Positions 1 through 27,750 of a stretch of 27,750 bases of DNA are shown here, piece by piece. A model generated the notes under the pieces. It saw only the letters and a list, made by a program, of their open reading frames with translations, ran no database searches and was not told where the DNA came from. The stretch is from a virus: the UHGV virus genome UHGV-0085994; one strand, 5' to 3'. How positions within the stretch are numbered: the stretch's first letter is position 1; the number at the start of each line of letters is the position of its first letter. Both the position numbers and the translations under genes were made by a program.

Positions 1-53
1 TCATCGGGCATTATCTGAACATAAAACACTATCAATAAGTTGGAGTCATTACC
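1..53 (+). mobile_element. IS1 right-terminal fragment (last 53 bp of IS1; body of element lies outside the window)
   Basis: Positions 1-53 read TCATCGGGCATTATCTGAACATAAAACACTATCAATAAGTTGGAGTCATTACC, which I recognise as the 3' end of IS1 including the terminal inverted repeat; exact reverse complement is present at the other end of the window. Confidence 0.8.
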
Positions 54-324
54 AACTGATTGAAAGGGCATTGTTTACCTTACCCAGGAGTTCGCCAAAT
101 TCCCCCATCACTCTAGTAAGCCCGCGCCGCGCTTCCTCCTCCGTTGCATTCATCACAAAATGTTCAGCACTCCGCATGCTTTTAACGGGGAACGCAACAG
201 ATATCGAGTCGATATCAGGCATCCTATCGCTCAACTTTACGGTGACAATGACAGATGGCGACAGAATATTAGTGCTTACAGACAGCACTACATATTTTCC
301 GTCGATGTTGAAATCCTTTCTCAT
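49..324 (-). CDS. hypothetical protein immediately downstream of cre, C-terminally truncated by IS1 (stop codon lies inside the IS1 terminus); position corresponds to the cra/ref side of P1
   Basis: 91-aa ORF, ATG at 322-324, preceded by a C1-operator-like site at 341-357; reading frame runs into IS1 sequence at 49-53. Confidence 0.4.
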   Translation of the reverse strand: MRKDFNIDGKYVVLSVSTNILSPSVIVTVKLSDRMPDIDSISVAFPVKSMRSAEHFVMNATEEEARRGLTRVMGEFGELLGKVNNALSISW

Positions 325-340
325 ATGCCACCATAAATAT

Positions 341-357
341 CAAAAAATTAGAGCAAT
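341..357 (-). promoter_or_regulatory. C1 repressor operator-like site (13/17 match to ATTGCTCTAATAAATTT)
   Basis: Minus strand reads ATTGCTCTAATTTTTTG between cre stop and the next ORF start. Confidence 0.45.
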
Positions 358-374
358 CATTTACGTGTTAATGG

Positions 375-1406
375 CTAATTGCCATCTTCCAGCAGGCGCA
401 CCATTGCCCCTGTTTCACTATCCAGGTTACGGATATAGTTCATGACAATATTTACGTTGGTCCAGCCACCAGCTTGCATGATCTCCGGTATTGAAACTCC
501 GGCACGGGCCATATCTCGCGCGGCTCCGACACGGGCACTGTGTCCAGACCAGGCCAGGTACCTCTGTCCAGAGTCATCCTTAGCCCCGTAAATCAATCGG
601 TGAGTTGCTTCAAAAATCCCTTCTAGGGCGCGAGTTGATAGCTGGCTGGTGGGTGATGGCGAGGCAACACCATTTTTTCTGACCCGGCAAAACAGGTAGT
701 TATTCGGATCATCAGCCACACCAGAGACAGAAATCCATCGTTCGACCAGTTTAGTTACCCCCAGGCTAAGTGCCTTCTCTACACCTGCGGTGCTAACCAG
801 CGTTTTCGTTCTGCCAATATGGATTAACATTCTCCCACCGTCAGTACGTGAGATATCTTTAACCCTGATCCTGGCAATTTCGGCTATACGTAACAGGGTG
901 TTATAAGCAATCCCCAGAAATGCCAGATTACGTATATCCTGGCAGCGATCGCTATTTTCCATGAGTGAACGAACCTGGTCGAAATCAGTGCGTTCGAACG
1001 CTAGTGCCTGTTTTGCACGTTCACCGGCATCAACGTTTTCTTTTCGGATCCGCCGCATAACCAGTGAAACAGCATTGCTATCACTTGGTCGCTGCAGCCC
1101 GGACCGACGATGAAGCATGTTTAGCTGGCCCAAATGTTGCTGGATAGTTTTTACTGCCAGACCGCGCGCCTGAAGATATAGAAGATAATCGCGAACATCT
1201 TCAGGTTCTGCGGGAAACCATTTCCGGTTATTCAACTTGCACCATGCCGCCCACGACCGGCAAACGGACAGAAGCATTTTCCAGGTATGCTCAGAAAACG
1301 CCTGGCGATCCCTGAACATGTCCATCAGGTTCTTGCGAACCTCATCACTCGTTGCATCGACCGGCAATGCAGGCAAATTTTGGTGTACGGTCAGTAAATT
1401 GGACAT
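375..1406 (-). CDS. cre: Cre site-specific tyrosine recombinase (P1 Cre, near-identical)
   Basis: 343-aa translation matches the P1 Cre sequence as I recall it, with a few substitutions (e.g. C-terminus LEDGN); loxP lies about 420 bp upstream. Confidence 0.98.
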   Translation of the reverse strand: MSNLLTVHQNLPALPVDATSDEVRKNLMDMFRDRQAFSEHTWKMLLSVCRSWAAWCKLNNRKWFPAEPEDVRDYLLYLQARGLAVKTIQQHLGQLNMLHRRSGLQRPSDSNAVSLVMRRIRKENVDAGERAKQALAFERTDFDQVRSLMENSDRCQDIRNLAFLGIAYNTLLRIAEIARIRVKDISRTDGGRMLIHIGRTKTLVSTAGVEKALSLGVTKLVERWISVSGVADDPNNYLFCRVRKNGVASPSPTSQLSTRALEGIFEATHRLIYGAKDDSGQRYLAWSGHSARVGAARDMARAGVSIPEIMQAGGWTNVNIVMNYIRNLDSETGAMVRLLEDGN

Positions 1407-1413
1407 TTGACAC

Positions 1414-1635
1414 TCAGATAATGGTTTTAAGTAAAGTGTACAGGATCGGCTCTGCCTTTACCTGTTTATGGTTCTCGTCATAGAAACGCCAACGACCGCG
1501 ACTGCGTTCTATCTTTTCTTCACCGCGCGATAATGACAGTTGACAACTATCACGATCAAACCCTTTTGCCCGCCAGTAACCACGATTTTTCTCAAGCTCA
1601 AGATGAGTGGACACTTTAGCAGCTGAATATCCCAT
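1414..1635 (-). CDS. small hypothetical ORF between loxP and cre (73 aa); may be non-coding cre leader
   Basis: ORF with strong Shine-Dalgarno (AGAGGTGA, then ATG); ends 8 bp before cre start; no recognisable domain. Confidence 0.25.
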   Translation of the reverse strand: MGYSAAKVSTHLELEKNRGYWRAKGFDRDSCQLSLSRGEEKIERSRGRWRFYDENHKQVKAEPILYTLLKTII

Positions 1636-1730
1636 TTTTCACCTCTGATTGATTGGTGGTGCTAAGTGCGCTACGCGAAATCTGGAGCATTAACACTGCC
1701 AACATTTCGCAGATTTTACGTAGCGCAACC

Positions 1731-1754
1731 TTGATCAAATGATCAAGTGATCAC
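1731..1754. promoter_or_regulatory. cluster of three Dam (GATC) sites as TGATCA hexamers at 8-bp spacing in the cre upstream region
   Basis: TGATCA at 1732-1737, 1740-1745, 1748-1753, plus another at 1801-1806; P1 cre promoters are known to be Dam-methylation sensitive. Confidence 0.5.
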
Positions 1755-1824
1755 TATTTGACCTGATAAGGTATTGAACTGTATGGATTTACAGCTAAAT
1801 TGATCATGTTCAATAACCCTTAAT

Positions 1825-25941: not shown

Positions 25942-25951
25942 ATCAGCCCCC

Positions 25952-26518
25952 TCACTTCAACATGGATGAGAAAAGAACAATTCCCGGGATAATTGCCCTT
26001 GTTGCGCTCATTTTCTCTTCCAGATCCAGCTTCCGCTGATACAGCGTGTTCTCTTCGGATAAATTGCTGGCATCGAGTTTCCCCGCGATAGATATTCTTC
26101 GCAGGCGATCAGTGTTAGGTATCGCGATTAGCACTTCCAGATAGTCAGAAAGTAACCCAATGATTTCAGGTGGCACTTCTCCATTATCCAGATCCATATC
26201 ACGCAAATTAGCCAGATATGACACATTCAGTGGGTATACCGCTCGATGGGTATCTTCAAGCTCGATATTCCCATCGTAAACGTCGGAGTAGACAAGATCG
26301 CCGGTGTGATCTGTAACCGATACGAGCGCAAGAAAATCAGCAGGGCAAGCAAGTGATTTACTGGCCTGATCAGTGAAGCGTATCCGCTTGATGTGCCCCG
26401 CTCTATCCTGGTAGGTTCCCAATGCTTTTCTTAGCAGGGATTCCAGTAAGGCAGGTTCATCCGCAATCAAAGGTGTGAAGCGGGATTTGACGTCTTCGAG
26501 TAATTGTCGTGGTGTCAT
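25952..26518 (-). CDS. hypothetical phage structural/morphogenesis protein
   Basis: 188 aa; first gene of the tail operon; GAGG Shine-Dalgarno. Confidence 0.5.
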
Positions 26519-26524
26519 TGAAAC

Positions 26525-26559
26525 CTCGTAGAATCTGGTGTGTTAACCGATTCTACGAG
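26525..26559. repeat. 11-bp perfect inverted repeat (CTCGTAGAATC / GATTCTACGAG, 13-bp spacer) immediately upstream of the tail operon RBS
   Basis: Directly visible; could be a protein-binding site or 5'-UTR hairpin. Confidence 0.5.
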
Positions 26560-26671
26560 TAGTCATTTGTTCATTGAGTAGGAATATTGTTGTCTGGGGG
26601 GTAATCAGTGTAGGTGGAATGAGGGATATGATATGGTTATCACATAATCAGGTTGTTTTGAGTAAAACAAT

Positions 26672-26698
26672 AAAACGCCCTTTAATGGGCGTTTTTTT
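26672..26698. terminator. rho-independent terminator (hairpin AACGCCC-TTTAAT-GGGCGTT plus T7), bidirectional context
   Basis: Directly downstream of the 270-aa minus-strand ORF. Confidence 0.6.
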
Positions 26699-26727
26699 AA
26701 AACTTAAATTGACTATCCTTTCAAATA

Positions 26728-27540
26728 CTATTTTAATTCTATGTAATTTTTAAATTCTCCCTCATATTTATACATGATGCTATCAAATCCTTCCATTACA
26801 TCAACGAATTGTTGTGAACATTCCGGCTTCCAAGGCGTACACTTACGAACCATATCCATTTTTTTCTTATCCTTCGTTGTATCGACTAAGGATAGGTACC
26901 CTATAAAATTCATCATCTGAACAGGATCTTGATTTGTGAATATATATTTGACGTTTTGCTTAGTAGGCGAAAAAGAATCAAAAGCAGGGAACATATATTC
27001 ACCAGAAAAAGAGAGTGCAGCATCAATGACGTCTGTTGCAGGAGTGCAGTTGCTCAGAATTGGCACTAAGCTAAAATTAGCACCTGAGCACACTGCATAT
27101 ATATCATCCCCTTTTTTTAGTTTTAACAGAGAGTCTTGCTTTGAATCCAATATTTTCAATTTGATATAATTTAGTGGCGTTGCATTTTCCCCTGGAGTAA
27201 ATAACTCTACAATTGGTTTATTATTCACCATTCTTATGGATTTTATTTCACCATACACAATTGGAATTGTGTTCCATTTTTCCTGAGCAGCAAATTCATT
27301 ATCTTTAAAATCATTAACCAACTCAGATGGCAAATGATAACCAAATTGATTGTTCATTGCTTTCGAAGCAAATCCAGACAAATAGAATGCCCTTACTAAA
27401 TCATAATCTTTCTTTGAGGTAGAAAGCCAATCTGGCAATTTATTATCAGCTATCGCGCTTCCAGCAAAAATAGCACAACAAAATGTTATTACATTAAATA
27501 ATTTCATTTTCCATTCACTCATTAATCGGTTTAAACTCAC
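26728..27540 (-). CDS. hypothetical secreted/periplasmic protein (N-terminal signal peptide), AT-rich cargo gene
   Basis: 270 aa; hydrophobic signal MKLFNVITFCCAIFAGSAIA; region strongly AT-rich compared with the phage backbone. Confidence 0.55.
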   Translation of the reverse strand: MSLNRLMSEWKMKLFNVITFCCAIFAGSAIADNKLPDWLSTSKKDYDLVRAFYLSGFASKAMNNQFGYHLPSELVNDFKDNEFAAQEKWNTIPIVYGEIKSIRMVNNKPIVELFTPGENATPLNYIKLKILDSKQDSLLKLKKGDDIYAVCSGANFSLVPILSNCTPATDVIDAALSFSGEYMFPAFDSFSPTKQNVKYIFTNQDPVQMMNFIGYLSLVDTTKDKKKMDMVRKCTPWKPECSQQFVDVMEGFDSIMYKYEGEFKNYIELK

Positions 27541-27709
27541 TAATTAATTCACCAAGACTATTTGGGTATGCTTTATAAATAACATACTCCGAAGAGCCAT
27601 CTGAATATTGGTAAGCCCCATAACAGATCAGTTTATTTATTCCTTTCTGAATAGTTTTTTGATTATAAGAATCAACCACTGTTATTCCATATGACGGTAA
27701 TGACTCCAA
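27515..27709 (-). CDS. hypothetical ORF fragment, 5' end disrupted by IS1 (only in-frame start is a TTG inside the IS1 terminus)
   Basis: 64-aa ORF with no internal Met; its 3' end overlaps the start of the 270-aa gene. Confidence 0.3.
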   Translation of the reverse strand: MESLPSYGITVVDSYNQKTIQKGINKLICYGAYQYSDGSSEYVIYKAYPNSLGELISEFKPINE

Positions 27710-27750
27710 CTTATTGATAGTGTTTTATGTTCAGATAATGCCCGATGACT
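27696..27750 (-). mobile_element. IS1 right-terminal fragment (55 bp), inverted relative to the copy at 1-53
   Basis: GGTAATGACTCCAACTTATTGATAGTGTTTTATGTTCAGATAATGCCCGATGACT, recognised as the IS1 terminus. Confidence 0.8.

Follow-up and report, generated by a model that had tools for sequence, protein, structure and literature searches.

An IS26-rearranged segment of a P1-like phage-plasmid from the human gut that ends in two copies of IS1

Composite transposons of the Tn1681 type are built from a DNA segment carried between inverted IS1 arms, and IS1 is also known to generate adjacent deletions. P1 itself holds a resident IS1, which the first-pass annotation of the present sequence had located beyond mod; in NC_005856 it lies at 22626-23393, between isaA and isaB and approximately 13 kb past mod. 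Both the res-mod region and simABC, the latter a low-GC hot spot, are known to vary among P1-like plasmids (PMC9603915). We analysed a 27,750-nucleotide stretch of DNA, referred to as the window. Judged from its sequence, it is a piece of an Enterobacteriaceae phage-plasmid of P1-like (Punavirus / IncY-type) character that insertion sequences have remodelled. It shares with Tn1681-type composites an inverted pair of IS1 copies around a DNA segment; unlike those composites, the block carries no evidence of movement as a unit, and the interrupted genes resume outside IS1 in relatives. With the resident IS1 of P1 it has in common the type of host replicon and, judging from the same junctions in relatives, the 768-bp element and a 9-bp duplication at AT-rich sites. 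The P1 copy sits at isaA/isaB, a region absent from the window, whereas the window copies sit in c8 and simB.

The backbone falls into two segments (54-20391 and 21212-27695), which BLAST aligns to P1 and P1-like plasmids at 94-99% nucleotide identity.
54..20391, no strand given: segment A of the backbone, corresponding to P1 from about 1788 down through 1/94800 to 80626 (BLAST to P1, MF510496.1 and other plasmids; annotations and Pfam).
21212..27695, no strand given: segment B, with sit', pmgB, tub, pmgC, simC and simB', corresponding to P1 at about 41.2-47.7 kb.
375..1406, minus strand: cre recombinase, intact, 343 aa (annotation; Pfam PF00589).
1825..1858, minus strand: loxP, a perfect 34-bp site with 0 mismatches (0 expected by chance).

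Segment A runs in the order c8', cre, cra, lox, coi, c1, an extra icd/ant module, pacB, 'pacA and lpa', followed by pdcB, doc, phd, humD, hot, hsdM-S-R, pap, pmgS, pmgR, pmgQ, ppp and pmgP'. Segment B is 99.95% identical to MF510496.1 (54334-47845), on the strand opposite to that of segment A; with P1 and intact relatives as the reference, the two segments are inverted with respect to each other. The markers expected of a Punavirus are present, namely cre/loxP, a C1 repressor with operators, pacAB, phd-doc, and tail and morphogenesis genes in P1 order. No replicon or partition genes (repA of the IncY or p0111 type, parAB) and no lytic replicon repL were found in the window; all of these map to 28-42 kb of MF510496.1, outside what the window covers. 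Their absence does not bear on the remainder of the source molecule.

The two segments meet at a complete IS26, an arrangement overlooked in the first-pass annotation.
20392..21211, minus strand: IS26, complete, 820 bp, with 14-bp terminal repeats GGCACTGTTGCAAA and a 234-aa transposase.
21185..24352, minus strand: sit' (tail transglycosylase / tape-measure-like), 1047 native codons of approximately 1130, followed by 8 codons and a stop from IS26.

IS26 joins pmgP' to sit' in inverted orientation, and the window is not collinear with P1. The 8-bp sequences flanking the element, CGTGGTTC and AATAACCT, do not form a target duplication; one corresponds to P1 80626 (in pmgP), the other comes from within sit, and intact relatives have the two on opposite strands. 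A simple insertion of IS26 is ruled out by the lack of an 8-bp duplication and by flanks that derive from distant, oppositely oriented regions of P1. As a result of the inverted join, the two IS1 borders of the window lie in P1 regions approximately 46 kb apart. Recombination between the two IS1 copies was rejected on paper as the cause of the inversion, since the block would then be bordered by one IRL and one IRR end. The exact sit'::IS26 fusion product was found on only 4 contigs. Plasmid pLAO48 (NZ_OP242270.1) was discarded as a match to this junction: there, IS26 is positioned 417 bp further into sit, and the DNA to which it is joined is not the same. That IS26 was assembled through implies that it has one context only, with comparable coverage; a reciprocal inversion junction would then be absent, which is more in keeping with a P1 remnant left by deletion than with an entire, rearranged plasmid.

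We also considered that segments A and B could come from different molecules, misjoined through IS26 during assembly. PLSDB and the complete E. coli genomes contain no record with the arrangement A-IS26-B, and the junction between segment A and IS26 has no independent confirmation from another sample. However, a k-mer assembler crosses an 820-bp repeat only where the graph is unbranched. Furthermore, Logan contig SRR28206348_75714, from an unrelated run, matches window positions 21184-27724 with 0 mismatches and thus reproduces exactly the half from IS26 and sit' to simB' and IS1. A comparable inversion, in which segment A is joined through IS26 to a tail gene, is found in E. fergusonii p22C037LT2, with IS26 in the same orientation as in the window and break points nearby. 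A chimeric misassembly is accordingly very improbable.

A further lesion lies within segment A.
7233..7234, no strand given: deletion junction with TA microhomology, 934-935 bp lost, fusing truncated lpa to truncated pacA.

The approximately 935 bp in question are present in all five references compared, MF510496 included. The deletion took out the 3' portion of lpa together with the 5' portion of pacA, and the genes called here encode 73 aa (lpa') and 209 aa ('pacA), as compared with 150 and 397 aa in relatives. Truncated genes in the window are lpa, pacA, sit, pmgP, c8 and simB. With lpa, pacA and sit broken, the element can presumably no longer make phage.

At its borders the window reads into IS1.
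1..53, minus strand: IS1 end, IRR (insB-proximal), 53 nt, without a difference from complete IS1; the remainder of this copy falls outside the window.
27696..27750, plus strand: IRR end of a second IS1 copy, 55 nt, 100% identical to complete IS1; 127 nt of it are present on the public contig.

The inverted repeat reported for these borders is real: positions 1-53 are the exact reverse complement of 27696-27748, and two further IS1 bases (27749-27750) extend the right end to 55 nt. A search with the 53-mer returned exactly two sites in the window, with 0 expected in 100 shuffles. Comparison of positions 1-53 with IS1, the check proposed in the first-pass annotation, gave a 100% match to the IRR end; both ends carry the characteristic IRR terminal inverted repeat GGTAATGACTCCAACTTATTGAT... 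and are identical throughout to the GGTAATGAC... end of the complete 768-bp IS1 in NZ_CP034659.1 and three other records. At the identical junctions, relatives have a complete 768-bp IS1 with insA/insB; the window itself contains the terminal 53 and 55 nt. The element differs from the P1 copy at no more than 9 positions. A sequence search found no IRL end in the window. On the public contig, the left and right overhangs differ at IS1 position 65 (A on the left, T on the right); since both ends are IRR and this position differs, they belong to two separate IS1 copies. The same two facts rule out closure of the contig into a circle through one IS1.

The origin of these ends is apparent from the source contig. 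The window is identical to MEGAHIT contig k127_395 (27,894 bp) less 72 nt at each end (0 mismatches in the 10,324 and 16,566 nt that could be compared, with an offset of 72 nt at either end). The contig belongs to a short-read human gut metagenome (ENA ERZ909642, run ERR688562, project PRJEB7774), and its name gives k=127. It terminates in 125 nt (left) and 127 nt (right) of IS1, lengths that match the k-mer size, and the window edges thus hold no biological information. Other short-read contigs with the left junction likewise end inside IS1, 29 to 335 nt in. IS1, at 768 bp, is a repeat with several copies in the community, which a de Bruijn assembler at k=127 cannot cross, and the contig stops on both sides because the assembler could not read through it. 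The 53- and 55-nt inverted ends would be what remains of the 125- and 127-nt k-mer overhangs after the trim of 72 nt per end. In this respect the contig does not differ from other short-read contigs whose ends are k-mer-length pieces of a multicopy IS, with the same 125/127-nt overhangs at k=127. Of the two possibilities initially raised, an IS1-flanked composite unit or a contig broken at IS1 copies, the k-sized overhangs single out the latter. We consider it highly probable that the window is the interior of a short-read contig from a rearranged and decaying P1-like phage-plasmid, broken at two copies of IS1. The IS1-bounded ends are ordinary and do not constitute a new mobile unit.

As first annotated, IS1 cuts a gene at each border, c8 on the left and simB on the right.
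49..324, minus strand: c8' (lysogeny establishment gene), truncated: of 103 codons the first 90 are kept, with codon 91 and TAA supplied by IS1.
54..62, no strand given: AACTGATTG, 9-bp target site of IS1 (P1 1780-1788) in the copy on the window side; the same 9 bp flank both IS1 ends in three relatives.

The first 90 codons of this reading frame align to P1 C8 (103 aa); the junction falls within codon 91, and the stop is indeed inside IS1, at 49-51. The exact 91-aa c8'::IS1 fusion product is on record on 21 contigs. Three relatives, compared over 10-kb flanks (CP056412.1, CP055919.1 and JABXQJ010000004.1), carry a complete IS1 in c8 flanked by the direct repeat CAATCAGTT, which is the AACTGATTG target site read on the other strand; JABXQJ010000004.1 is 100% identical to window positions 1-2125. 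One IS1 would have inserted into c8 at CAATCAGTT (P1 1780-1788). The lineage, which includes Citrobacter freundii and Escherichia coli by the names of the fusion proteins, shares the junction and the 91-aa C8' with the window. It differs in having an IS5-like element near lox, an IS1 in cre and IS26/Tn3 pieces, and lacks the IS26-sit' junction within the 10-kb flanks examined. No record spanning the left junction was found by BLAST in PLSDB or in 5,426 complete E. coli genomes, and exact-string scans of GTDB representative genomes, IMG/VR and JGI metagenomes gave 0 matches.

Between the end of IS1 at 53 and the cre stop at 375 there are 321 nt, a spacing given previously as about 320 bp, and from this proximity the loss of the ref-mat-res-mod block had been deduced. 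In this scenario the cre-proximal IS1 marks the end point of an adjacent deletion, an established activity of IS1. The relatives do carry a second, inverted IS1 1,021 bp further on, inside mat, and this is followed by lacA'-lacY-lacZ-lacI and not by the rest of mat; with lac genes in its place, part of the block has been displaced or lost in the c8::IS1 lineage. However, in all three long relatives, including JABXQJ010000004.1, whose 2.1-kb match to the window is perfect, the c8 IS1 retains an intact 9-bp duplication, and P1 positions 1780-2801 (the c8 3' end, ref and mat') directly follow it. This identifies the c8 IS1 as a simple insertion that does not mark the end of a deletion, and loss of ref-mat-res-mod is not implied. 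The resident IS1 of P1 is, moreover, not adjacent to mod, and res-mod is variable in any case, MF510496.1 having another gene there. An adjacent deletion ending at the c8 IS1 is therefore decidedly unlikely.

The right border is of the same kind.
27515..27695, minus strand: simB', the 3' 59 codons of a superimmunity accessory gene, aligned to P1 SimB and the MF510496 homologue.
27687..27695, no strand given: CCATATGAC, the 9-bp IS1 target site in simB, duplicated on either side of the insertion in NZ_CP034659.1.

P1 SimB has 111 aa, and IS1 has split off the 5' 52 codons. The reading frame at 27515..27709 was described as having its only start inside IS1; a TTG is indeed located there, at 27709, but it is not strictly the only start, as a native in-frame GTG occurs at 27679. 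No ATG start is present in this frame. The right junction was found in just one record in the PLSDB and complete E. coli searches, and exact-string scans of GTDB representatives and IMG/VR gave 0 matches. That record, the 454-kb IncHI1B/IncY plasmid of E. coli ATCC 98082 (NZ_CP034659.1), shares the simB::IS1 junction over 401 of 401 nt, with the IRR end at CCATATGAC. In contrast to the window, it has an intact sit and a composite IS1-ysgD-corA-IS1 insert, flanked by CCATATGAC with simB resuming beyond, and its backbone is only 98.7% identical to segment B. An IS1 copy different from that in c8 would have inserted into simB at CCATATGAC. With the left junction absent from PLSDB and the complete E. 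coli genomes and the right in one record, comparative support for the junctions is thin. Both do occur in public sequences.

These relatives also bear on the alternative that the 27.6-kb block is a real IS1-bounded P1 remnant inside another replicon or a chromosome, with cre/loxP, c1 immunity, phd-doc, type I restriction-modification and part of the tail genes, which would be invertible by IS1-IS1 recombination or mobile via the outer (IRL) ends. Two inverted IS1 copies with the same end (IRR) facing inward form the geometry of an inverted-repeat composite, the replication and partition genes are missing from the window, and several phage functions are broken. In addition, IS26 was assembled through, such that a reciprocal junction may be lacking, and perhaps also the remainder of P1, and P1-like segments do occur in a 5.12-Mb chromosome and in 274-kb and 454-kb plasmids. 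Against this, the ends are exactly k-mer sized and so biologically uninformative as boundaries, and finished sequences at both junctions are those of IS1 inserting into P1: past IS1, the interrupted gene resumes after its own 9-bp duplication. The recommended check for 8-9 bp target duplications, carried out in the relatives, thus returned 9 bp at both sites (CAATCAGTT and CCATATGAC), indicative of simple insertion. The backbone continues past IS1 in every long sequence with these junctions, contrary to the IS1-flanked composite unit first suggested. Neither unrelated outer DNA nor a single outer duplication, as in a composite transposon, was seen in the relatives, to which this comparison applies. 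We consider the IS1-bounded remnant unlikely. In the ERR688562 sample, the backbone probably also continues beyond each IS1, as it does in the relatives.

The contig broken at two IS1 copies calls for caution more generally: inverted contig ends of k-mer length that match a multicopy IS mark an assembly boundary, and in a short-read contig are not evidence for a composite transposon or a deletion. It is highly improbable that the block exists apart from the P1 replicon as a self-contained P1 remnant bracketed by IS1, in the manner of a domesticated defence and addiction island; if it did, cre/loxP, c1 immunity, phd-doc addiction and type I restriction-modification would have been kept in a chromosome or large plasmid, and the two inverted IS1 copies could flip or move the block. 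As a rearranged phage-plasmid, the window provides one further example of how IS1 and IS26 erode P1-like phage-plasmids of Enterobacteriaceae in the gut.

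The first 53 nt of the window and positions 27696-27748 are perfect reverse complements, and the right terminus carries two extra bases of IS1 beyond this repeat. A search of the window with the 53-mer found two sites only, the two ends (0 in 100 shuffles). The first-pass annotation had read the termini as inverted repeats matching IS1 and had proposed a database comparison; each end proved to match, at 100% identity, the GGTAATGACTCC... terminus of full-length IS1 copies of 768 bp (NZ_CP034659.1 and three NCBI records). In complete copies this end adjoins the insB 3' end, and the window ends are therefore IRR, the right inverted-repeat end of IS1. 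The left end, IRL (GGTGATGCTGCC...), was searched for in the window and is absent. The IS1 boundaries lie at 53/54 and 27695/27696; intact relatives seem to match the window up to 27701 because native GATAAT there resembles IS1 GGTAAT. Were there a single IS1 between the two ends, one would be IRL and the other IRR. The two overhangs of the public contig that contains the window also differ at IS1 position 65, outside the window: the left overhang has A, the right one T. The two ends belong to different IS1 copies, so the contig cannot be circularised through a single IS1, which bears on the refutation proposed earlier, that the ends might join each other.

The truncation of genes at both borders, as originally proposed, was confirmed:

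49..324, minus strand: c8', with 90 of 103 codons native, codon 91 across the junction and the stop within IS1
27515..27709, minus strand: simB' ORF, with the 3' 59 codons of simB (P1 SimB is 111 aa)

The c8 gene is a 'lysogeny establishment' gene that comes after cre in P1. The gene beside simB', simC, is undamaged, and its product shares 99.6% identity with P1 SimC. The statement that the simB' ORF has its sole start inside IS1 was slightly overstated: a TTG at 27709 does lie in IS1, but an in-frame GTG is found in native sequence at 27679.

Both junctions are already in public records. The exact 91-aa C8'::IS1 fusion product occurs in 21 contigs on record (listed as Citrobacter freundii and E. 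coli), three of them long: CP056412.1 (5.12 Mb), CP055919.1 (274 kb) and JABXQJ010000004.1 (111.7 kb). Window 1-2125 is matched by JABXQJ010000004.1 at 100% identity. In 3/3 long contigs the c8 IS1 is complete, lies between direct repeats CAATCAGTT (P1 1780-1788) and is directly followed by P1 1780-2801, a stretch with the 3' end of c8, ref and the beginning of mat; next come a second, inverted IS1 and lacA'-lacY-lacZ-lacI. Across PLSDB and 5,426 complete E. coli genomes, the simB::IS1 junction was found only in NZ_CP034659.1 (L002), where simB holds an IS1-ysgD-corA-IS1 unit with IRR ends outward (L002 21485-24726 = 52110-55351). The 9-bp CCATATGAC stands on both sides of this unit, and simB resumes past it.

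Junction strings expected for alternative states of the IS1 insertions
c8 insertion: GTTGGCAGCATCACC + CAATCAGTTCAGCAAGGTCC; IRL, target duplication and c8 3' end; would mean a simple insertion with ref kept
simB insertion: GTTGGCAGCATCACC + CCATATGACGATAATATTTCG; would indicate a single IS1 in simB
simB composite: TTGGAGTCATTACC + CCATATGACGATAATATTTCG; would indicate a composite as in NZ_CP034659.1

The target duplications and resumed genes in relatives argue that both junctions are IS1 insertions into the P1 backbone; by descent, the same state would be expected in this metagenome. An IS1-flanked composite unit, one of two readings offered by the first-pass annotation, would make the junctions the edges of a block inserted elsewhere. 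It is unlikely, as in relatives each interrupted P1 gene continues past IS1 after its own target duplication. The junctions were also considered as deletion end points; here the suggested check for target duplications, applied to the relatives, decided for insertion over IS1-mediated deletion (CAATCAGTT at c8, CCATATGAC at simB).

In the c8::IS1 lineage (CP055919.1, JABXQJ010000004.1 and CP056412.1; L006, L007 and L008, about 11040-19800), the second IS1 lies inside mat and is followed by the lac operon and alcohol-dehydrogenase genes; no target duplication was seen at this IS1 in the three sequences. One copy of this P1-like region resides in a 5.12-Mb chromosome (CP056412.1). A further IS1 is present in the cre 3' end of CP055919.1 (L006 9151-9918) with an 8-bp duplication, CAATGGTG, which shows that this small region has been hit repeatedly by IS1. 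NZ_CP034659.1 is a 454-kb IncHI1B/IncY plasmid whose P1-like portion is broken by IS26 at many further points, and the corA of its composite is the chromosomal magnesium transporter gene.

The IS1 sites of the window differ from that of P1. The order in NC_005856 1-12000 is lox, cra, cre, c8, ref, mat, res, mod (with IS5), lxc, ulx and darB, and no IS1 was found in this interval; the IS1 of P1 itself occupies 22626-23393, with isaA and isaB on either side, some 13 kb past mod. Loss of ref-mat-res-mod, previously deduced from an IS1 about 320 bp from cre, does not follow, as ref and the mat start come after the c8 IS1 in relatives. Eight variable low-GC regions have been described in P1-like phage-plasmids, res-mod and simABC among them (PMC9603915).

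The junction-specific fusion proteins C8'::IS1 (91 aa) and Sit'::IS26 (1055 aa) were both found on one public contig, k127_395 (27,894 bp; ENA ERZ909642, run ERR688562, project PRJEB7774, human gut metagenome). The retrieved parts show zero mismatches to the window, which equals this contig less 72 nt per end. Its full IS1 overhangs measure 125 nt at the left end and 127 nt at the right, and k=127 is stated in the contig name. When a de Bruijn contig enters a multicopy repeat from unique sequence, its last k-mer is the first one wholly in the repeat. The right overhang fits this expectation; the left is 2 nt short, which a further IS1 copy in the sample with the same last two flanking bases would explain. 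Further short-read contigs with the left junction also end within IS1, 29 to 335 nt in. The alternative of a contig broken at IS1 copies is thus the correct one: the observation of the first-pass annotation was right, its interpretation half right. The limits of the window are technical: the assembly stopped at two ordinary IS1 insertions in a P1-like phage-plasmid eroded by insertion sequences, and none of this would be unexpected to a specialist.

The window interior comprises three parts and is not collinear with P1:

54-20391: segment A, which in P1 extends from about 1788 back across the lox origin and ends within pmgP at 80626
20392-21211: complete IS26, 820 bp
21212-27695: segment B, sit' through simB'

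In P1 and intact relatives, e.g. MF510496.1, segment A is on one strand and segment B on the other. Through IS26, pmgP' (P1 80626) is joined in inverted orientation to an internal point of sit. Of the roughly 1130 sit codons, 1047 remain, and of pmgP only the last 51. No 8-bp target duplication was found at the IS26 flanks (CGTGGTTC and AATAACCT), and IS26 therefore marks an inversion-type rearrangement. The Sit'::IS26 product is rare (4 contigs); segment B including the IS26 and IS1 junctions recurs with zero mismatches in the unrelated run SRR28206348. E. fergusonii p22C037LT2 likewise has an A-IS26-tail-gene arrangement with equal IS26 orientation; its break points lie outside those of the window, by 914 bp and 3.7 kb. 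We speculate that the window arrangement could have arisen from such a form through IS26-adjacent deletions. The assembler went straight through the 820-bp IS26, which implies one IS26 context only at comparable depth; the reciprocal junction is therefore probably absent, and the element may be a deleted remnant. Another IS26 break in sit, 417 bp deeper, occurs in pLAO48 (NZ_OP242270.1, L021 5111-6820). On the other side of that IS26, P1 homology stops in c8 at P1 1764, 24 bp from the window's IS1 site, with about 890 bp in between.

Several further features of the window were noted. A type I restriction-modification operon, hsdM-hsdS-hsdR (10514-16459; HsdR with an EcoR124_C domain), occupies the place of P1 pmgT-upfO/lxr, the known variable region 8, with hsdS its most divergent part among relatives. 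Between c1 and pacB lies an extra icd-like and ORF6N/ANT antirepressor module (3433-4766). P1 lacks it at that place and several P1-like plasmids have it; its similarity to part of a gene close to kilA in MF510496.1 is about 86%. Repeats of the ATTGCTCTAATAAAT family (347-367, 1889-1918, 1984-2008, 5093-5122, 16695-16724, 18790-18810 and 18836-18865) correspond to C1 repressor operators, their positions matching P1 OpmgT, OpmgRa/b and sites near lox/coi and pacB.

At 7233/7234, a deletion of 934-935 bp takes the 3' half of the late-promoter activator gene lpa and the 5' part of pacA; the stretch is kept in 5/5 P1-like references compared. The truncated genes (lpa' 73 aa vs 150, 'pacA about 209 aa vs 397) are fused, with TA microhomology at the joint. 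In P1, the deleted part of pacA contains the pac site. Such a deletion would abolish late gene activation and packaging. Given these losses and the damage to sit, pmgP, c8 and simB, a full lytic cycle is most likely out of reach for this P1 relative; cre/loxP, c1, phd-doc, humD, hot and the type I hsdMSR are apparently still intact.
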